Source: a phage | Length of the DNA stretch: 64,000 nucleotides | Direction: 5' to 3' (one strand) | Sequence record: PZ179882.1 | Shown: positions 1,742 through 40,187 of the stretch, one piece after another | How the letters are laid out: each line of letters starts with the position of its first letter | Position numbering within the stretch: position 1 is the first letter of the stretch | Made by a program: the position numbers and the translations under genes | Notes under the pieces: model-generated | Seen by the model: the letters and a program-made list of their open reading frames with translations, nothing else | The model's database searches: none | What the model was told of the DNA's origin: nothing

Positions 1742-2757
1742 TGTGTTGCCTCTACATATAACTGATTTGCATATTGAATAAGTGCTTCACGGTCAGAATC
1801 AGTGATGTCTGGAATTGCATTAATGTATTCTTCCATCAACGTCTGAAGAGATTGAACTTCAACTTCTTCACTGTCATCTGACTCGACAGAGTTATCAATC
1901 TTTGACACAACTCGTAATGAATGCACAACTTTTTCTAGTTCAGATTCGAACTTCGTTAGATTTTTGTCTACTTCAGTTACTATAACACGTACTGATAGAT
2001 TTGTAAAATCTTTATAGTCAATTTTTCCTTTAAATGGATAATGAATTCTACGATGCCAGGTAGTGTTGTTTGGAATAAATTCCATTCGTTCTGTTTCTGT
2101 ATCAAACATCCAGAACCCACGAGGGTCATTCTCGTCACCTGCAGTTAGTGTCCATGGTGTCCCAATATATCTGACGTTAGCAGCCTCAGAGATAGTATGG
2201 AAGTGACCAGACCACACCTCTTTATAAGTCTTAAGGAAATCAGGTTCAAGACCGTGAGATTTCATTCCTTTATAAAAATAAAATCCATTCAGCTCCCAGT
2301 GACCGACACAAAAAGAAGCAGATGAAGTTTTGATGTGTTCAAGAATTTCACCAGTATTTTCTTCACACATCCAAGGAATTAAATCAATCAAACATCCGTC
2401 AAAATCTACTGTAGTAGGCTTATCATATACTTTAACATTAGGATATTTAGCCAAAAGTTCAGTAGAAGCATTTGGAGTTAAAGTATTTTTAAAGTGCATA
2501 TCATGGTTTCCTACAACAGTATGTAGGGTAATACCAGCATCATCAAGCATTTGAACTATTTCACGAGCGAACTCCATAGTTTTATGTGTGATTGCTTTTC
2601 GCACATCAAAAATATCGCCATATTGAATCCATGTAGTAATTCCATTTTTCTTAGAATATTCTATTGCTTGTTTAATTCCATCCAACTGAATGGATTGAAC
2701 CCACTCATCATCGGCTTTAACACCTAAATGCCAATCACCTAAATTTAAAATTTTCAT
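1738..2757 (-). CDS. 47: Recombination endonuclease subunit gp47 (Mre11-like nuclease)
   Basis: 339 aa; N-terminal GDWHLG and GNHD phosphoesterase motifs; matches T4 gp47 from memory. Confidence 0.92.
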   Translation of the reverse strand: MKILNLGDWHLGVKADDEWVQSIQLDGIKQAIEYSKKNGITTWIQYGDIFDVRKAITHKTMEFAREIVQMLDDAGITLHTVVGNHDMHFKNTLTPNASTELLAKYPNVKVYDKPTTVDFDGCLIDLIPWMCEENTGEILEHIKTSSASFCVGHWELNGFYFYKGMKSHGLEPDFLKTYKEVWSGHFHTISEAANVRYIGTPWTLTAGDENDPRGFWMFDTETERMEFIPNNTTWHRRIHYPFKGKIDYKDFTNLSVRVIVTEVDKNLTKFESELEKVVHSLRVVSKIDNSVESDDSEEVEVQSLQTLMEEYINAIPDITDSDREALIQYANQLYVEATQ

Positions 2758-2917
2758 ATATCAAGAACCGTCATTGAAATGCAAAATAAAATTATTGAAA
2801 TAAATCCATCTGGAGTACTAAAGAATCCAATCCAACATGCTCTAGTGAATAGATAAAACGCTAGAAAAAGTATCACATATCCAAGAAATATCATTATATC
2901 AAACTCCGTATAAAGCT

Positions 2918-2935
2918 AAAGGGCCGAAGCCCTTT
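2918..2935. terminator. GC-rich hairpin (GGGCCGAAGCCC) at the a-gt 3-prime end
   Basis: AAAGGGC-CGAA-GCCCTTT stem-loop overlapping the a-gt stop; T-rich flank on plus side. Confidence 0.45.
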
Positions 2936-4136
2936 ATTTTGTAATAATGTCAAACTGTTCTTTAAAGCAGAAGCTTGAATCTTGATGCTGATACAAAAAT
3001 TCATAAGCTTTTTCGCGTTCGCGATCATAAAGAGCTCGGTCAGATGACAGTTCTTTAATACGTTCAAATGTTGATTCCATGTCATTTTCATCAAACCAAA
3101 CGATACCGCTATCGTGTGAAATTAATGGAGTATTATCAACACGGAATTTTAAATTTTCGCCAGTAGATTTCCAAAATACTGGAATTGTTCCACATGCACC
3201 AAGCTCGAGATGAGTGTATTCTAAAGAACGCTGTAGATATTTTTTGTCCAACTTACTCAGCTGATAACCAAATCCGGATTTACTCATGCGTTCAAGCATT
3301 TCGCTATTTACATAACGGTCGAGAATTTGCGTTGGCAAATTAGGAGCAATTTTAATTTGGTCTACTTGATGAAGACGATAATACTCGTATGGAATTCCTT
3401 TTTCTTTAATAGGAATGAATGCTGGAGAACGTTCCAGACCTTCCATAATAGTACTTAGTCCTGCAGGTTTAAGATGTTTTTCATGAAAATCAAACATCTG
3501 ATAAAAGCCTTTCCATGTAGTAGTACGACCAATCCAACGGTTGATATTCATGTTAATTTCAGAAACATCTTTCCAGTAGGTTGATCGAACCTTCGCAATA
3601 TCCATAGGAGGCTGAAAGTTATATACGGTCGGTGCTTCTTCAATATCATCAAACAGAGAAACAGTTTCCGGATACCATTCTTTCATCAAAACTTTATTAA
3701 AGTCACCATTATCAGAATGGCTAAAAATAACATCAGCTCGACGAACAGTTTCTTCTAATCCCAAATTTCGACGCAAAGAAAGAGAAGAATGGTCATGCTG
3801 ATAAACTACAACACGAACCGAAGGTTTAATGTTATCAATAATTTTTTTATAGTTATTAATGGTGTCTTCTTCTACTGAAGTAGCAGGAACTGAATTGATA
3901 ATTAAAATATCGCAATCATTTACCAGTTTAAGTGTTTTATCGTATTCTTTTGCCAATAAAACCGGAATTGAAAATGACTTATAATCATGTGCGCAATTAC
4001 GAGTAAATGATTTATCTTTAGCATAAACCAAAGTTACTTCATGACCATTTTTAATAAACCAATCACGTTGCTCAAGAGAAAATTTAGTTACACCGCAACC
4101 TTCAAGACCTCGAGCCATAAAAATACATACTTTCAT
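2934..4136 (-). CDS. a-gt: DNA alpha-glucosyltransferase
   Basis: 400 aa, same length as T4 alpha-glucosyltransferase; N-terminus CIFMARGLEGCGVTKFSLEQRDWFIKNGHEVTLVYAKDKSF recognised. Confidence 0.9.
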   Translation of the reverse strand: MKVCIFMARGLEGCGVTKFSLEQRDWFIKNGHEVTLVYAKDKSFTRNCAHDYKSFSIPVLLAKEYDKTLKLVNDCDILIINSVPATSVEEDTINNYKKIIDNIKPSVRVVVYQHDHSSLSLRRNLGLEETVRRADVIFSHSDNGDFNKVLMKEWYPETVSLFDDIEEAPTVYNFQPPMDIAKVRSTYWKDVSEINMNINRWIGRTTTWKGFYQMFDFHEKHLKPAGLSTIMEGLERSPAFIPIKEKGIPYEYYRLHQVDQIKIAPNLPTQILDRYVNSEMLERMSKSGFGYQLSKLDKKYLQRSLEYTHLELGACGTIPVFWKSTGENLKFRVDNTPLISHDSGIVWFDENDMESTFERIKELSSDRALYDREREKAYEFLYQHQDSSFCFKEQFDIITK

Positions 4137-6192: not shown

Positions 6193-6519
6193 TTATACCT
6201 TAGTAATTTTCAGGTCTGCAAATTTTTTCTTACGTTGATTTTTCATGCGACGAATAGTTTTATCGGAAATTTCATGCTTTTGATAAGCTTTAGATTCTAC
6301 ACCAAAAGCTTTAACATCAAATTCTGACAAGATATATTGAACCAACAATTCACGGACAGTATTGCGTCCAATCTTCTGATCATTCTGTTTCATCATCTGA
6401 TGAAGCTCTTTTTCCCATTTATCCAAAATTTGAGGAGTTACAATATCGCCTTTTTCTAGCAAAGAAACTACTTTATCATATGCGTAAGAATTGATGGCGT
6501 TTTTAATTTGAATAGTCAT
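6193..6519 (-). CDS. Hypothetical protein
   Basis: ORF track 108 aa. Confidence 0.5.
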   Translation of the reverse strand: MTIQIKNAINSYAYDKVVSLLEKGDIVTPQILDKWEKELHQMMKQNDQKIGRNTVRELLVQYILSEFDVKAFGVESKAYQKHEISDKTIRRMKNQRKKKFADLKITKV

Positions 6520-6552
6520 ACATTATCCTCAATTACGTTAAAATTTTATTAT

Positions 6553-6573
6553 CCAAAAAGGGCCGAAGCCCTT
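6553..6573 (-). terminator. Rho-independent terminator (minus strand)
   Basis: AAGGGC-TTCG-GCCCTT hairpin followed by UUUU on minus strand. Confidence 0.6.
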
Positions 6574-6772
6574 AGCTAAACTTTTTGGCACCCTTCCAGC
6601 CTTCGTACATCATTGCGGCTGATATTAATATTGCCCCTGAACAGCTTGAATATTTGTGATTCCAAAACCAGTTCAGAAAAACTTCGTCATCAATACCTTG
6701 GGCTATCATATTTTCAAAGAACTGACGACGAGCTTCGGCAATTCGTTGTGATAATTTAGATTCAGGATTCAT
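6572..6772 (-). CDS. Hypothetical protein
   Basis: ORF track 66 aa; followed by hairpin terminator. Confidence 0.45.
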   Translation of the reverse strand: MNPESKLSQRIAEARRQFFENMIAQGIDDEVFLNWFWNHKYSSCSGAILISAAMMYEGWKGAKKFS

Positions 6773-6988
6773 TTAAATTTTCCAGTTACCATTTTCATCA
6801 ATGAATTTAATCCAGTCATTTACTGACCACTTGGTCGTATCGCCTTTTGGAGCAACATTTAAAGTGTATAATCCTTGTTTAAAAAGCATTCGTTTGATAT
6901 TCATATTTTCCTCAGCTGTAACGATAGCACTCGTTTGATTTACGCTTAGCAACTCGTTGAGAAGTATTGTAATCAAAATCATCGTCAA
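6773..6988 (-). CDS. Hypothetical protein
   Basis: ORF track 71 aa. Confidence 0.45.
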   Translation of the reverse strand: MTMILITILLNELLSVNQTSAIVTAEENMNIKRMLFKQGLYTLNVAPKGDTTKWSVNDWIKFIDENGNWKI

Positions 6989-18035: not shown

Positions 18036-18063
18036 TTTCTGTTCCTCCGTAGTTGATAGGGTA

Positions 18064-31091: not shown

Positions 31092-31894
<803 letters not shown>

Positions 31895-34765: not shown

Positions 34766-34866
34766 AGTATTTCCTTAGGTTAATTGAGATTTAAAATCCG
34801 TAGGAGTATAATACTCTATCGTCAAATTATAGGCTCATAATATCTCAATCATGAGCCTGCGTAAAC

Positions 34867-35130
34867 TTATTTCATATTATTGAAATATTCTTCTGCGATT
34901 TCGTCGTTATCATGGTAAACTTTAGAAGACAGTTTAACATAACCTTCTGCTGTGAACATATTAATCACAACTTTTACAGTATACCACTGACCGTCTTCAT
35001 TACCCATTACTGCGTAAGTTTCAAACATCGGATGATCAGGACCGATAACTTTAATATCATTCACTGTACGACCGAAATCTTCTGAAACGCATTTCATAAA
35101 GAAGTTGAACAGTTCGCCGTAATTATCCAT
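34867..35130 (-). CDS. Hypothetical protein
   Basis: ORF track 34867..35250; ATG at 35130 with GGAG RBS lies downstream of promoter 35174..35203; 87 aa. Confidence 0.45.
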   Translation of the reverse strand: MDNYGELFNFFMKCVSEDFGRTVNDIKVIGPDHPMFETYAVMGNEDGQWYTVKVVINMFTAEGYVKLSSKVYHDNDEIAEEYFNNMK

Positions 35131-35173
35131 TTCATTCTCCAAGTTGTTTTCTGTATCAGTAGTTGATAGTTGT

Positions 35174-35203
35174 ATAGTACCATGGAAGAACAGAGATGTA
35201 AAC
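35174..35203 (-). promoter_or_regulatory. T4 early-type promoter
   Basis: GTTTAC 35203..35198, TACTAT 35179..35174. Confidence 0.55.
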
Positions 35204-35359
35204 AGTTTTGTGAAAAAATTTTTAGGGAATTCTAGGGCAGGGATGGGCAATTAAAGGATAGGATAATATATTATAAAGGGTATAAACTAAATGATGCCTA
35301 GAGAGGTCCAGAAAGGCCTAGATACCAAAAAGCCCTATCATTTAGATAGGGATTTAAAA

Positions 35360-35923
35360 TTATTTACCTAGTTTACTTATTATAGCTTCTGCAGCAGCTT
35401 TTAGCTTAGATGCAGTGTTAATACGATTTTTAATTTCAGTATACGCATCGCCAAGAACATCAAGGCTATCAGAATAAACACTTACACTATTGCGTTCGCT
35501 ATTTGAAATAGAACCTTTAGTTTTGCGGTCAAAATCGGTGTACACGTCTTGAAGATCGCGGGCTGCCTTCTTTGCATCATCCAATGCATCAAGAGCTTTA
35601 TTCAAAGCATTAACGTATTTTTTAGTGTCGAACATATTCTTAGAAATTTTAACAGGTGCGCGTTCAGGAGTAGCTAACACAGATTTAGGAACCTGAGCGC
35701 CAGATGCCAATTTCTTAGAAATTTTGAAAAATGCTTTATTGAATTTATTTTCTTGACTCATTGTAAAAGAACTATTATCGATGTTGTACATTTCAATAGC
35801 TTTAGCTTTCCACTTAAGAAAATCGCCGCGGTCTTTTGGGTCCAATTGGAAGAATACTTTAGTAAGATCTGCTTCAGATGGTAATTTTGCTGCTTCGGTT
35901 AAAAATTCGGCATAGGTTTTCAT
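35360..35923 (-). CDS. Internal (capsid-targeted) protein, IPIII-like
   Basis: 187 aa; starts MKTYAEFLTEA capsid-targeting sequence. Confidence 0.6.
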   Translation of the reverse strand: MKTYAEFLTEAAKLPSEADLTKVFFQLDPKDRGDFLKWKAKAIEMYNIDNSSFTMSQENKFNKAFFKISKKLASGAQVPKSVLATPERAPVKISKNMFDTKKYVNALNKALDALDDAKKAARDLQDVYTDFDRKTKGSISNSERNSVSVYSDSLDVLGDAYTEIKNRINTASKLKAAAEAIISKLGK

Positions 35924-36013
35924 TTAAAATCCTTGAAATAATTTATCGGTTGGTTATTAATTATTTATTACTTTGTTACTATCCGTAACAGCGTTATCCG
36001 AGTGATTCAAACT

Positions 36014-36044
36014 AAAAAGCCCCAACCTTTCGGTCGGGGCTAAG
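36014..36044 (-). terminator. Terminator-like hairpin, copy 1 of a 31-bp repeat
   Basis: AAAAAGCCCCAACCTTTCGGTCGGGGCTAAG; on minus strand a 9-bp stem (one G-U) followed by UUUUU. Confidence 0.55.
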
Positions 36045-36048
36045 AATG

Positions 36049-36522
36049 TCATTTGATTTGTTTAGCAGACCAAATGCGGTCTTTAATAATTTTTTGGATG
36101 TCTTCAACATACTCAAGAGAGTGAACATGTGGATTATCTTTGAAACTATAAGCACGGGCTAACTTTTGGCCTTCGGTTTTGATTACTAAAAGCTCTTTAA
36201 GGATAGCTTCATATTTAGCGATAATTCCTTTAACGATATTTTTTTCTTGTGCCGCTTTAGGATCTGCTTTAGGAGCAGGTTTACCCGAAGCCTTTGCAAA
36301 AGCAGCGCCAGTAGCAACTAAACTTTTCCAGGCCATACTAACTGCATTTCCCGTAAATCCTTCCGCTTTCATGTCGCGTGCAAACTGGAATCGCGATTCA
36401 TCAGAAGCATCTTTATAGGAATATTTACCCGCGGCAATGGCAGCTTTTGCAACAGCTTGAATTTCGGTGCTAGATGCTTCATTTAACACCGCTTCATTTA
36501 AAAATTGAGTATATGATTTCAT
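36049..36522 (-). CDS. Internal-protein-like protein (MKSYTQFLNEA N-terminus)
   Basis: ORF track 36049..36699 runs into the RNA region; ATG at 36522 with AGGAAA RBS; 157 aa; flanked by identical 31-bp hairpins. Confidence 0.55.
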   Translation of the reverse strand: MKSYTQFLNEAVLNEASSTEIQAVAKAAIAAGKYSYKDASDESRFQFARDMKAEGFTGNAVSMAWKSLVATGAAFAKASGKPAPKADPKAAQEKNIVKGIIAKYEAILKELLVIKTEGQKLARAYSFKDNPHVHSLEYVEDIQKIIKDRIWSAKQIK

Positions 36523-36570
36523 CTTATTTCCTGTTTTAATTTGTAGATTTAATATACTAATATTTATACC

Positions 36571-36601
36571 AAAAAGCCCCAACCTTTCGGTCGGGGCTAA
36601 G
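36571..36601 (-). terminator. Terminator-like hairpin, copy 2 of the 31-bp repeat
   Basis: Identical 31-mer to 36014..36044. Confidence 0.55.
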
Positions 36602-36905
36602 CCTTGCGGCAACCTTGTCGGGGTTCCACCTGCTAAGGCAAGTGTTTGTACGAAACGCCGGGATTCGAACCCGGTTATTAAGTAGTTGACGCTACTCAAT
36701 ATTTTTAAAAGGCCATATCTCGACCATATCCGAACGTTCCGTCAAAAACGCTACTCGGCTTACGGCAAAGATATTTCCTCGAATCGATAATTCGGTGCGC
36801 CGTTTCTGCTGTGATAGTAAAGAGCCAGAACACAGTAAAACTGTGGGAGGAAACTATACTCCAGGGAACATCAGTCCGACGACTTACCGGTAGCGACCCG
36901 GTTTC
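36602..36905 (-). ncRNA. Structured non-coding region with a tRNA-like 3-prime half; candidate small stable RNA(s)
   Basis: No credible ORF; T-arm-like CCGGGTTCGAATCCCGG (36658..36674) plus hairpins; no complete cloverleaf. Confidence 0.3.
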
Positions 36906-37256
36906 TTAATATTCTTTTAAAGAATCAATATATTCACGGCGTTTACGCCACAAATCAATTGCTTCATACGCGGATTCAGCATTTCGAATTAGCCGGCATT
37001 TATGTAAAGACTTATGATTTTGATATTGTGTAGATAACGGAATTGTATCTAAAAGGTCTTTACGATCAAAATATTCGTAACCATCTAAACCAAATGAACG
37101 ATTTTTGAGAAATTGCCAATGACCATATTCGTTTTCGACATAAACATAATCTGCATGCTGATAAAGCAAATTAATTACACGTTCAGAAATAACAGTATCA
37201 TTATGATTAAAATAGAATGTTAAATCATGAACTACTAAATAAACATTACCTTTCAT
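36906..37256 (-). CDS. Hypothetical protein
   Basis: ORF track 116 aa. Confidence 0.5.
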   Translation of the reverse strand: MKGNVYLVVHDLTFYFNHNDTVISERVINLLYQHADYVYVENEYGHWQFLKNRSFGLDGYEYFDRKDLLDTIPLSTQYQNHKSLHKCRLIRNAESAYEAIDLWRKRREYIDSLKEY

Positions 37257-37274
37257 ATTTTCCTCACTTATAAT

Positions 37275-37350
37275 TGGTCGAGGCAGTAGGGATCGAACCT
37301 ACGACCTAGGACTTAGAAGGTCCTTGCTCTTCCTTCTGAGCTATGCCCCG
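37275..37350 (-). tRNA. tRNA-Arg (anticodon UCU)
   Basis: 76 nt cloverleaf folded by eye; loop CUUCUAA; T-loop GTTCGATCC; encoded CCA. Confidence 0.85.
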
Positions 37351-37354
37351 TAAT

Positions 37355-37429
37355 TGGGTGACCGATGGGAGTCGAACCCATGACTACGAGAATCACAATC
37401 TCGAGTTCTACCAACTGAACTACGGCCAC
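37355..37429 (-). tRNA. tRNA-His (anticodon GUG)
   Basis: 75 nt cloverleaf; loop UUGUGAU; T-loop GGTTCGACTCC; encoded CCA. Confidence 0.8.
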
Positions 37430-37543
37430 ATTAATACCTACTCCAACAATCAAGATGTCTTCACACGAAATTAAGAGAAGAGTGATCAGTTCAACCCCTA
37501 TAATCGCGTCAAGTAGATATTAATGTGACAGTTGTCACAAATT

Positions 37544-37618
37544 TGGCGGACGTGATAGGATTCGAACCTATAACCAATCGCTTAACAGGCGATCGCTCTG
37601 CCATTGAGCTACACATCC
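37544..37618 (-). tRNA. tRNA-Asn (anticodon GUU)
   Basis: 75 nt cloverleaf; loop CUGUUAA; encoded CCA. Confidence 0.8.
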
Positions 37619-37622
37619 AAAT

Positions 37623-37709
37623 TGGTGGGGAGTGATGGAGTCGAACCACCCGAGTCGCAATGACAATGGATTTACAGTCCACACCGCTACCTCTACGGGA
37701 TAACTCCCC
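37623..37709 (-). tRNA. tRNA-Tyr (anticodon GUA)
   Basis: 87 nt with long variable arm; loop CUGUAAA; encoded CCA. Confidence 0.75.
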
Positions 37710-37721
37710 TAATTCGTAATT

Positions 37722-37796
37722 TGGTGGCCCTGGGTGGAATTGAACCACCATCTGGCGATTATGAGTCGCTTGCTTGAACCTTCCAGCTACAGGGCC
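37722..37796 (-). tRNA. tRNA with CAU anticodon (Met, or Ile if C34 is lysidine-modified)
   Basis: 75 nt cloverleaf; loop CUCAUAA; one mismatch in D and anticodon stems. Confidence 0.75.
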
Positions 37797-37797
37797 T

Positions 37798-37873
37798 TGG
37801 TGCTGATTGACGGAATCGAACCGCCGACCTTCTCATTACAAGTGAGTTGCTCTACCTACTGAGCTAAATCAGC
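37798..37873 (-). tRNA. tRNA-Thr (anticodon UGU)
   Basis: 76 nt cloverleaf; loop CUUGUAA. Confidence 0.85.
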
Positions 37874-37878
37874 AAAAC

Positions 37879-37968
37879 TGGCGGAGGCGATAGGATTTGA
37901 ACCTATGAGTCGCCGGAGCGACTGCCGGTTTTCAAGACCGGTGCATTAAACCACTCTGCCACGCCTCC
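37879..37968 (-). tRNA. tRNA-Ser (anticodon UGA)
   Basis: 90 nt with long variable arm; loop CUUGAAA. Confidence 0.8.
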
Positions 37969-37970
37969 AG

Positions 37971-38044
37971 TCTCCGTGGCAGGATTTGAACCTACGACAT
38001 TCTGCTCCCAAAGCAGACGCTCTACCAAACTGAGCTACACGAAG
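37971..38044 (-). tRNA. tRNA-Pro (anticodon UGG), CCA not encoded
   Basis: 74 nt; loop UUUGGGA; 3-prime end lacks CCA. Confidence 0.8.
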
Positions 38045-38054
38045 TAAATTAAAT

Positions 38055-38128
<74 letters not shown>

Positions 38129-38133
38129 AAATT

Positions 38134-38220
38134 TGGTGCGAGAAGTGGGACTCGAACCCACAAGGAAATCATTCCGCAGCATTTTAAGTGCTGTGCCTTT
38201 ACCAATTTGACCATTCTCGC
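38134..38220 (-). tRNA. tRNA-Leu (anticodon UAA)
   Basis: 87 nt with long variable arm; loop CUUAAAA. Confidence 0.85.
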
Positions 38221-38226
38221 TCTATA

Positions 38227-38859
38227 TTATTTATTACGTGAAAAAGATTGTTCTATCAATTCTGGACACTTTCGTTCTATCCATTTTCTAGCTTTTTGTG
38301 GGCTTATACCTATTATTTTAGCAGCTTTACTAACCCATCCAAATTTAGAATAATCGATTTTAACTAATTCTTCGTAAATTTCATCAGTTAAAATCTTTTC
38401 ATTAATATTTACCAGTAAATGATATAATTTATTATCATTAGCAATTTTAATGAATCTTTTATAGTTTCCGCCTTTACTTAAACCTAATGAAGTAATTGCA
38501 GATGATATAGTAGCTGAATTTAATAGTGCGTTTAAAATTTCTTCATCACTAACATTATAACGCTTTTTATTATTTTTAATATTTTTACCGGCAAAAGTAT
38601 CAGTTTGCGAATGGCAATTTGGACATAATAATCTTAAATTTGATTTAAGATGATTTTTGTTATTTCCATCAATATGGTCTAATTGCAGAACAATATGCTT
38701 ATTTTGCCATTTTGAAATTTTACAAATTGCACACTCATATGGAAAAATATTTTCTTTTATTATTTTGTCTTTCAGCTTTCCTGTACTAAAATTTGGATGT
38801 TTTCCTTCAAAAATTTCAGCTAATTTAGTATCCATAATATAATTCCCAATTATTAACAA
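38227..38859 (-). CDS. HNH homing endonuclease
   Basis: 210 aa; LQLDHIDGNNKNH...LRLLCPNCH HNH motif; stop 6 nt upstream of tRNA-Leu; start may be 38835. Confidence 0.65.
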   Translation of the reverse strand: MLIIGNYIMDTKLAEIFEGKHPNFSTGKLKDKIIKENIFPYECAICKISKWQNKHIVLQLDHIDGNNKNHLKSNLRLLCPNCHSQTDTFAGKNIKNNKKRYNVSDEEILNALLNSATISSAITSLGLSKGGNYKRFIKIANDNKLYHLLVNINEKILTDEIYEELVKIDYSKFGWVSKAAKIIGISPQKARKWIERKCPELIEQSFSRNK

Positions 38860-39819: not shown

Positions 39820-39847
39820 TTTATTCTCCTCAGTAGTAGATAGGGTA

Positions 39848-39877
39848 ATAGTATCACTACCCTATCTAAAAGTAAAC
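39848..39877 (-). promoter_or_regulatory. T4 early-type promoter
   Basis: GTTTAC 39877..39872, TACTAT 39853..39848. Confidence 0.55.
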
Positions 39878-40111
39878 TTATTTTTTACGAAAAATTGATT
39901 TATTTTCTGCTGCCCATTTTTCAATAACTGCAGCAGGACCAGTAACAACAATTTTATCACCGTAATCTTCTGCGGCGAGTTGACCGAAATTATCTAATGC
40001 ATCACGAAGAACTCCATGAGGCATTTCACCCATTTTATCTTTCTTGCCGGTGTAAATAAACTCAACTTTTACATCAGCAGTTTCAGCAATAAATTCTTGG
40101 TAAGTTTTCAT
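39878..40111 (-). CDS. Internal protein I-like (capsid-targeted)
   Basis: ORF track 39878..40123; MKTYQEFIAE capsid-targeting sequence starts at 40111; 77 aa; position upstream of 57B as T4 ipI. Confidence 0.6.
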   Translation of the reverse strand: MKTYQEFIAETADVKVEFIYTGKKDKMGEMPHGVLRDALDNFGQLAAEDYGDKIVVTGPAAVIEKWAAENKSIFRKK

Positions 40112-40145
40112 TTTGATTTCCATTTGGTTTTGTTTTGATAGGGTA

Positions 40146-40175
40146 ATAGTATCACAACTAAAACCCTATGTAAAC
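40146..40175 (-). promoter_or_regulatory. T4 early-type promoter upstream of the ipI-like gene
   Basis: GTTTAC 40175..40170, TACTAT 40151..40146. Confidence 0.55.
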
Positions 40176-40187
40176 AACTTTGTGAAA

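Follow-up and report, generated by a model that had tools for sequence, protein, structure and literature searches.

The DNA analysed here, a stretch of 64,000 nucleotides from sequence record PZ179882.1 which is called the window in the following, is that of a Tequatrovirus, i.e. a T4-like phage. The gene order was obtained by mapping T4 proteins onto the window, and all genes of the region are located on the minus strand. Along the direction of transcription the first part comprises 57B, a 77-aa internal protein (IP) gene, trna.4 to trna.2, an ORF of HNH type, ten tRNAs and a 116-aa ORF. This part is followed by rnaD, rnaC, an outer hairpin, a 157-aa gene, an inner hairpin and a 187-aa gene, and then by a different hairpin, e.8, e.6, e.5 and, further on, nudE, e, a 93-aa IP gene and denV. 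The features needed here are:

38227-38859: HNH-type ORF, adjacent to the tRNA cluster
36794..36909, minus strand: homologue of rnaD (species 2 RNA), with approximate boundaries and a middle section which has diverged from T4
36649..36787, minus strand: homologue of rnaC (species 1 RNA), from alignment to the annotated rnaC of T4
36571..36601, minus strand: outer (upstream) copy of a 31-mer, stem 36575-36598, predicted terminator of the tRNA-rnaD-rnaC operon, some 50 nt downstream of rnaC
36561..36568, minus strand: TATAAATA motif, T4 late-promoter consensus
36049..36522, minus strand: 157-aa gene with the leader MKSYTQFLNE/A, which resembles a capsid-targeting sequence (CTS); candidate internal (injected) head protein
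36014..36044, minus strand: inner (downstream) copy of the 31-mer, stem 36018-36041, predicted terminator of the 157-aa module
35360..35923, minus strand: 187-aa gene with the CTS-like leader MKTYAEFLTE/A; second module, independent in its presence and absence
35327..35351, minus strand: third, different predicted terminator with the hairpin at 35333-35351, CCCTATCTAAATGATAGGG plus T5; ends the 187-aa module
35174-35202: predicted early-promoter-like site of e.8
34867..35130, minus strand: homologue of e.8, conserved, which anchors the variable interval on its downstream side

Both rnaC and rnaD are also annotated in RB27, at the matching place. An Rfam scan of positions 35000-38500 recognized the tRNAs only; the hairpins, rnaC and rnaD remained without a match.

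The 31-mer, which reads AAAAAGCCCCAACCTTTCGGTCGGGGCTAAG in plus-strand coordinates, is present in two exact copies in direct orientation, at 36014-36044 and 36571-36601. It is the sole exact direct repeat of at least 24 nt within the window, and a third copy was not found in the 64 kb even if up to three mismatches were allowed (none is expected from shuffled sequences). The outer copy ends 48 nt ahead of the ATG of the 157-aa gene, and the inner copy begins 4 nt past its stop codon. Read on the minus strand, either copy gives CTTAGCCCCGACC-GAAA-GGTTGGGGCTTTTT, that is a stem of 10 bp (seven G-C pairs and one G.U pair) with a GAAA loop and a U5 tract. In both copies T5 follows directly after the stem, as the U-tract of an intrinsic terminator does, and both are placed where such a terminator belongs, at the 3' end of an operon and of a gene, respectively, and in sense orientation. 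A consensus scan scored both copies as terminators. For the 51-nt contexts of the two copies folding energies of -24.9 and -20.5 kcal/mol were calculated (z = -3.9 and -4.5). The fold of the plus strand is weaker, because the G.U pair turns into an A.C mismatch there. By its predicted fold each copy is thus a strong intrinsic terminator of the minus strand. The sequence-only reading of the window had stated that the 31-mer brackets the 157-aa gene as an exact direct repeat and that each copy folds into a minus-strand terminator, and both statements were confirmed. Both hairpins were already marked as terminators by the depositors of D5505. More than 25 phages from independent sequencing projects, e.g. 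D5505, HP3, YUEEL01 and Paracelsus, share the segment 35200-37300 at 100% identity, and therefore the repeat is not an assembly artefact.

The third terminator lies 687 nt away and is quite unlike the 31-mer. Past its GGGCTTTTT the window resumes sequence of the T4/T6 type, GGTATCTAGGCC..., and since this continuation is found only after the third hairpin, both genes with a CTS-like leader represent an insertion relative to T4.

A leader of the type MK[ST]Y..F[LI].E is found in only four ORFs of the window. Besides the 157-aa and the 187-aa gene these are the ORFs in the two classical IP loci, e-denV (93 aa) and 57B-trna.4 (77 aa). In comparison to the leader MKTYQEFIAEA of T4 IPII/IPIII, 7 of 11 residues are identical in the 157-aa protein and 8 of 11 in the 187-aa protein, and both leaders comprise the protease site L-x-E followed by Ala. 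The leader of the 187-aa protein was aligned to IPII/IPIII by BLAST; that of the 157-aa protein, for which BLAST gave no match to IPII/IPIII, was compared by eye. Beyond the leader no BLASTP similarity of the mature parts to IPI, IPII or IPIII was detected, so that the designation "IPII-like", which had been given to the 157-aa gene, holds for its 11-aa capsid-targeting leader and does not extend to the mature part. The characterised IPs are themselves mutually unrelated in sequence (PMC12373910), so the missing homology of the mature parts is a weak criterion. Searches of Pfam, NCBIfam and PDB sequences with the IP-like proteins gave no match, and the public names of both proteins are throughout "hypothetical protein". 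Both genes most likely encode internal head proteins which are injected and which would be cut after Glu10 by the prohead protease. IPI-IPIII are specific inhibitors of GmrSD-type restriction (PMC12373910), and our best guess is that the two candidates may likewise act against a host defence.

The TATAAATA motif begins 3 nt past the T-run of the outer terminator and ends 38 nt ahead of the ATG of the 157-aa gene. Across the Tequatrovirus alleles it is kept while the adjoining bases vary, and in phiC120 it is replaced by AATAAATA. Overall, the window shows no excess of the motif (13 found and 11 expected), so its assignment as putative late promoter of the 157-aa gene draws on position and conservation only.

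The hairpin at the outer position is not specific to genomes that carry one of the two genes. It matches in 30 of 31 positions in T4 and in all 31 positions in T6 and T2, in each case some 50 nt downstream of the 3' end annotated for rnaC. In these three phages it is directly followed by GGTATCTA(A/G)GCC... and the promoter region of e.8, with no protein gene in between. As the hairpin is present there without an IP gene, the outer copy can be regarded as the terminator of the tRNA-rnaD-rnaC unit. As far as the compared sequences tell, it is a conserved feature of the genus which is independent of the internal-protein genes.

To describe the variation downstream of that terminator, the interval from the rnaC-distal anchor to the start codon of e.8 was extracted from 13 loci. 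Four natural configurations were identified:

Empty interval, 266 nt: T4, T6 and T2
157-aa gene only, with a hairpin on either side, 811-825 nt: RB51, RB27, NR1 and one IMG/VR contig
187-aa gene only, preceded by the rnaC hairpin and followed by the different hairpin, 943 nt: ESh36
Both genes, 1500-1513 nt: the window, D5505, ECML-134, pSs-1, one IMG/VR contig and the Mosigvirus phiC120

RB69 has the same 187-aa-only junction as ESh36, and its interval is longer because its copy of the 187-aa gene is frameshifted. Every module junction is located directly after the GGGCTTTTT of a terminator. If one 557-bp unit is removed from the interval of the window, the interval of ESh36 is obtained with two mismatches in 943 nt, and the removal of its own 559-bp unit from RB51 leaves 266 nt, which is the length found in T4 and T6. 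Among the loci compared, the inner copy is missing from those genomes which do not contain the 157-aa gene. The identity to the window jumps at the module borders. In phiC120 it is 97% for rnaC, 74% for the 157-aa gene and 95% for the 187-aa gene, and in ESh36 the 187-aa gene is 100% identical and both flanks are about 97% identical.

For a wider survey the GenBank phage collection was used, as IMG/VR yielded only five contigs with the hairpin; the record numbers are approximate and include RefSeq/GenBank duplicates. The 157-aa gene was found in 403 records and the 187-aa gene in 165, of which about 128 contain both genes. The 187-aa-only junction is fully covered in 48 records, which leaves about 37, including Shfl2 and HY03, after subtraction of 11 two-piece matches from genomes with both genes. 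The exact 31-mer occurs at 516 places in 420 records and never more than twice in a record. It is present twice in about 96 genomes and once in about 324, i.e. about three quarters of the genomes carry a single copy.

These numbers bear on the remaining claims of the sequence-only reading, which had seen in the repeat a portable cassette with the internal-protein gene. That idea was essentially right, since the 557-bp unit is present or absent as a whole with its breakpoints exactly at the repeat. The 31-mer is also not scattered over unrelated terminators, given at most two places in any of the 420 records. The tie between hairpin and IP genes was overstated, as was the novelty: the hairpin belongs primarily to the end of the tRNA/rnaC operon and not to IP genes. 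Flanking by identical copies applies to the lineage of the window, about 96 records, with D5505, HP3 and the BASEL phages Paracelsus and WilhelmHis as examples, whereas the two copies of most carriers differ at 1-3 nt and those of Mosigvirus at 5 nt.

Several alleles of the hairpin exist. The 5' arm of the stem reads CCCCGACC in the window and CCCCAGCC, CCCTAGCC or CCCCGACT elsewhere, and Mosigvirus has CCCCTTCC in its outer copy and CCTTAGCC, together with an AAAA loop, in its inner copy. All variants stay paired by G.U wobbles, which work only in the minus-strand RNA. Named by two bases of the stem, the outer and inner alleles are GA/GA in the window, AG/AG in NR1, GA/AG in ECML-134 and AG/GA in an IMG/VR contig (L008). 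NR1 therefore also contains two identical 31-mers, of another allele than the window. An exact match to the AG allele occupies the outer position in 49 records, and AG is common at the inner one too, e.g. in RB32, RB33 and PP01. Recombination in the flanks is unable to shift an allele from one position to the other, and therefore the pattern speaks either for conversion of one copy by the other or an unequal exchange, or for repeated insertions which copied the resident hairpin. The sharing of alleles between the two positions points to exchange from copy to copy. Alternatively, since GA and AG have the same UU as their pairing partner, the alleles could have arisen by parallel mutation via AA or GG; neither of these intermediates occurred among the few loci read. 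The duplication is old, its copies drift and are now and then re-homogenised, and their exact identity in the window is one such state and not the trace of a pristine recent event.

Taken together, the data are probably best explained by a 557-bp module which is docked to a terminator and bounded by recombining hairpin repeats, and whose genes likely encode injected internal proteins. Four other explanations were weighed against that reading.

The first assumes a single ancient insertion as a passive scar, the presence or absence of which is maintained by homologous recombination in the long flanks while the 31-bp repeats are inactive. Some observations fit this assumption. The polymorphism is old, as Tequatrovirus and Mosigvirus each include genomes with both genes and genomes with the 187-aa gene only. 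Over hundreds of bases the flanks agree to 92-99% and thus offer homology far beyond 31 bp, and most carriers have two hairpin copies that differ from each other. However, one and the same allele with two substitutions occupies the outer position in one set of genomes and the inner position in another, and the window and NR1 are each internally identical with different alleles. Alleles cannot change their position by recombination of the flanks, and T4 is known to recombine at much shorter repeats (PMC9391042). We therefore regard inactive repeats as unlikely.

According to the second explanation the 157-aa and the 187-aa gene are paralogues, and the repeat is the remnant of a tandem duplication which included the terminator. 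Both proteins match phrog_2280 (unknown function) over the full length of this PHROG, and the leader/start regions of the two genes are 74% identical over 42 nt. The relationship suggested by the shared PHROG found no support outside the 11-aa leader, where the two proteins show no significant BLASTP similarity and hhalign gives a probability of 0.4%. Moreover, the 187-aa gene ends in a different terminator, and both hairpins are kept in the 157-aa-only genomes, while there is one in the 187-aa-only genomes. A tandem duplication is thus very improbable.

It is still harder to see in the repeat the footprint of a mobile element, be it a target-site duplication or an insertion driven by a homing endonuclease, although an HNH-type ORF is located nearby (38227-38859), segB-type genes occur in the tRNA cluster of relatives, and co-conversion could aid the spread of neighbouring alleles. 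The only ORF of the 557-bp unit encodes the 157-aa protein, which has no family match, and the unit contains neither a nuclease nor a transposase. A duplication of 31-36 bp which coincides with a pre-existing functional terminator would also be an atypical target-site duplication. A transposon or IS as source of such a duplication was rejected, since the unit shows neither a transposase nor terminal inverted repeats. Independent selection of two terminators for the same optimal sequence has hardly any probability left: both copies look functional, with a stable stem under selection, but the identity of 31 of 31 positions extends over the unpaired 5' CTTA, the loop and the T-run (none expected by chance), the third terminator nearby is quite different, and the boundaries of the repeat are also the boundaries of the indels.

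The terminator-docked module, i.e. the preferred reading, could have come about and could operate as follows. In the lineage of the window the 557-bp module would have been set directly after the T-run of the rnaC terminator. It consists of the late-promoter-like TATAAATA, a ribosome-binding site, the 157-aa gene with its CTS-like leader, 4 nt and a copy of the terminator. As a result of its placement after the resident terminator the gene is bracketed by hairpin direct repeats. The second module is built likewise from a leader of its own, the 187-aa gene and a different terminator, and joins at the 9-nt microhomology GGGCTTTTT. With its own promoter and terminator each gene would form a self-contained unit which is insulated from its neighbours, and the outer terminator is predicted to stop transcripts of the tRNA operon 3 nt before TATAAATA.

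Recombination between the two 31-bp copies would loop out exactly one unit. The junction expected from a deletion of 557 bp is rnaC-hairpin-AGTTTGAATC, reading ...GGGGCTTTTTAGTTTGAATC. A gain could occur, for instance, if a circle with one hairpin integrated by a single crossover at the resident terminator, which would recreate the bracketed arrangement. Existing alleles may in addition pass from one co-infecting phage to another by way of their extended conserved flanks, and recombination in these flanks, which are 95-99% identical, could account for the whole spread of the presence/absence alleles with no part played by the 31-bp repeats. We infer that recombination between the copies is an ongoing mechanism. 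There are precedents for the single steps. During laboratory evolution T4 undergoes deletion and amplification between microhomologies of 2-10 bp, and IP genes are among the losses (PMC9391042). In RB49 and phi1, ORFs flanked by PeSLs excise as mini-circles, and T4 deletions often end at GGGC/GCCC motifs (both PMC2839356).

All parts can be combined to one joint reading, which as a whole is tentative and rather doubtful. The interval rnaC-e.8 would then be an unrecognised third hotspot for injected IPs in the Tevenvirinae (Tequatrovirus and Mosigvirus), with terminator-bounded cassettes docked at the terminator of the tRNA operon. Gene conversion would keep the hairpin copies alike, the 557-bp unit would leave and re-enter the genome in circular form as PeSL mini-circles do, and both proteins would be new anti-defence effectors.

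The interval rnaC-e.8 illustrates neatly, in natural genomes, the gain and loss of accessory genes by T4-type phages as insulated units of promoter, gene and terminator. A functional terminator serves as the joint, and all intermediate states are preserved among the sequenced genomes. In addition, two widespread "hypothetical" genes (about 400 and about 165 records) are flagged as candidates for injected anti-defence proteins outside the usual IP loci. Such candidates are relevant now that IPI-IPIII are known as specific inhibitors of GmrSD-type restriction. The existing picture of the plasticity of T4 genomes is not changed by this locus.

The comparison with known systems starts with the terminator itself. 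The outer copy of the window agrees in sequence and position with the terminator of the rnaC/tRNA operon of T4. In T4, T2 and T6 this terminator is a single copy with the promoter region of e.8 directly next to it, whereas the window has two copies.

The two proteins share with T4 IPI-IPIII the leader MK[ST]Y.[EQ]F[LI].E/A with the L-x-E site and the late-promoter motif, and like IPI-IPIII they are encoded by dispensable, variable genes. They differ in their dissimilar mature part and their other locus, and the 157-aa and 187-aa proteins are known here from their genes alone.

As cited in PMC2839356 and PMC4122927, Repoila et al. 1994 (EMBO J 13:4181) reported promoter/stem-loop sequences which flank IP genes in two hypervariable loci, and proposed them as mediators of IP shuffling. 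As described in these later papers, the elements resemble the repeat of the window in that short conserved regulatory sequences are located on both sides of genes with an 11-aa leader, whose gain and loss among relatives they are proposed to mediate. According to the same descriptions they are T4 early promoters (GTTTAC...TACTAT type) overlapping weak AT-rich stem-loops, whereas the 31-mer has no such promoter and is a strong G+C-rich intrinsic terminator by its predicted fold, the outer copy of which doubles as terminator of the tRNA operon. The loci given for them are 57B-trna.4 and e-denV, while the repeat of the window lies at a third site, rnaC-e.8. Elements of the Repoila type are present in the window at the gene of the ipI locus (39839-39886 and 40137-40184). 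At its two classical IP loci neither the 31-mer nor a relative of it was found; the genes there are flanked by different early-promoter/stem-loop sequences. Away from the 31-mer, the window shows elements of the Repoila type as the repeat families D1 and D2. As a side observation, a neighbouring indel at e.7 breaks at an early-promoter/stem-loop element and not at a terminator.

The idea of promoter/stem-loop shuffling was generalised with the PeSLs (Arbiol et al. 2010, PMC2839356; Comeau et al. 2014, PMC4122927). The GCCCC...GGGGC stem of the 31-mer with its arms of G-run and C-run is like the terminator stem-loop of a PeSL. The copies flank optional genes, and the indels of relatives break within the element. 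Excision and integration of mini-circles as described for PeSLs would yield the loss or gain of single units that is seen at rnaC-e.8. A PeSL, however, also comprises a sigma-70-like early promoter with an AT-rich upstream region, and the window hairpins lack this part. A scan of the minus strand for sigma-70-type sites gave none in 35924-36013 and 36523-36570; the outer copy is followed by the late-type TATAAATA and the inner copy by no recognisable promoter.

The locus resembles the microhomology deletions and amplifications of T4 (Srikant et al. 2022, PMC9391042) in that the segment enclosed by two short direct repeats comes or goes and a single repeat is left. The microhomologies of T4 are chance repeats of 2-10 bp (PMC9391042), whereas the repeat of the window has 31 bp, looks functional and is conserved over hundreds of genomes.

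Both the flanking repeat and the principle of stem-loop-mediated IP shuffling are already known; the former is given in the GenBank record of RB51, where the 157-aa homologue is described as "flanked by 34 bp imperfect direct repeat". Our literature search for the rnaC-e.8 locus, the names of its ORFs and the rnaC terminator found nothing, the Petrov 2010 review and a T4 omics paper included, and recent papers still count two Ip loci (PMC2839356, PMC12373910). What the window adds to these systems is modestly new, namely a third site for IP-like cassettes, which is terminator-bounded and docked at the terminator of the tRNA operon.

The second CTS-leader (capsid-targeting sequence) gene, which encodes 187 aa, and the 157-aa gene enclosed by the terminator repeat both have homologues in related phages.

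2648-3210 of the RB69 locus (NC_004928), frameshifted homologue of the 187-aa gene
1796-2257 of the RB27 locus and 1999-2463 of the phiC120 locus, divergent alleles of the 157-aa gene (153-154 aa)

In the RB69 annotation this homologue is split into two ORFs that overlap, 149c and 148c. Since it is frameshifted and its translation leaves the family after about residue 122, the copy in this reference Mosigvirus may be a pseudogene. The RB27 and phiC120 alleles of the 157-aa gene are strongly different in the N-terminal third that follows the leader, and the C-terminal half is nearly invariant. This suggests a protein in which a variable specificity region is joined to a conserved domain.

In the e-denV locus T4 holds ipIII and ipII, whereas the window has only one CTS gene at this locus.

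31092-31373, minus strand, single 93-aa CTS gene

Over the first 19 residues of the 93-aa protein the identity to the 157-aa protein is 58%, and this stretch includes a second L-N-E-A motif. The N-terminal likeness of the two proteins hints at a leader exchange between the loci.

The tRNA cluster and its surroundings contain the homologues of rnaC and rnaD as well as two further ORFs.

36649-36909, minus strand, rnaC and rnaD homologues
36906-37256, minus strand, 116-aa ORF (phrog_3355, RB69ORF150c-like) inserted between tRNA-Arg and rnaD
38227-38859, minus strand, ORF of 210 aa that contains the HNH-type motif HIDGNNKNH...CPNCH, directly upstream of tRNA-Leu

Neither the rnaC nor the rnaD homologue had a match in Rfam, even with E values as high as 1 allowed. 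The rnaC homologue, which includes a tRNA-like T-arm (GGTTCGAATCCCGG), is conserved to about 97% in comparison to T4, whereas rnaD differs strongly from its T4 counterpart in the central part. The 116-aa ORF is missing from T4, T6 and ESh36; its stop codon adjoins the rnaD homologue at the latter's 5' end. Upstream of tRNA-Leu, D5505 carries a tRNA-Gln, which ARAGORN did not find anywhere in the window, whereas the window carries the 210-aa ORF, probably a free-standing homing endonuclease inserted in the cluster.

Compared with the T4 locus (6397-6875), e.7 is missing from the window and a single spacer (34766-34866) is in its place. This spacer and the T4 e.8-e.7 and e.7-e.6 spacers all carry GTTTAC early-promoter motifs overlapping inverted repeats, and the e.7 indel therefore breaks at PeSL-like elements (early promoter and stem-loop), not at terminators.

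Elements of early promoter and stem-loop also flank the gene at the classical ipI locus.

39878-40111, minus strand, ORF of the 77-aa CTS gene
39839-39886 and 40137-40184, early-promoter/stem-loop elements, one on each side

Both elements share the exact 19-mer GATAGGGTAATAGTATCAC and are members of a dispersed family with other copies at 18055 and 20193. They look like the Repoila-type element, in contrast to the 31-mer terminator repeat around the 157-aa gene.
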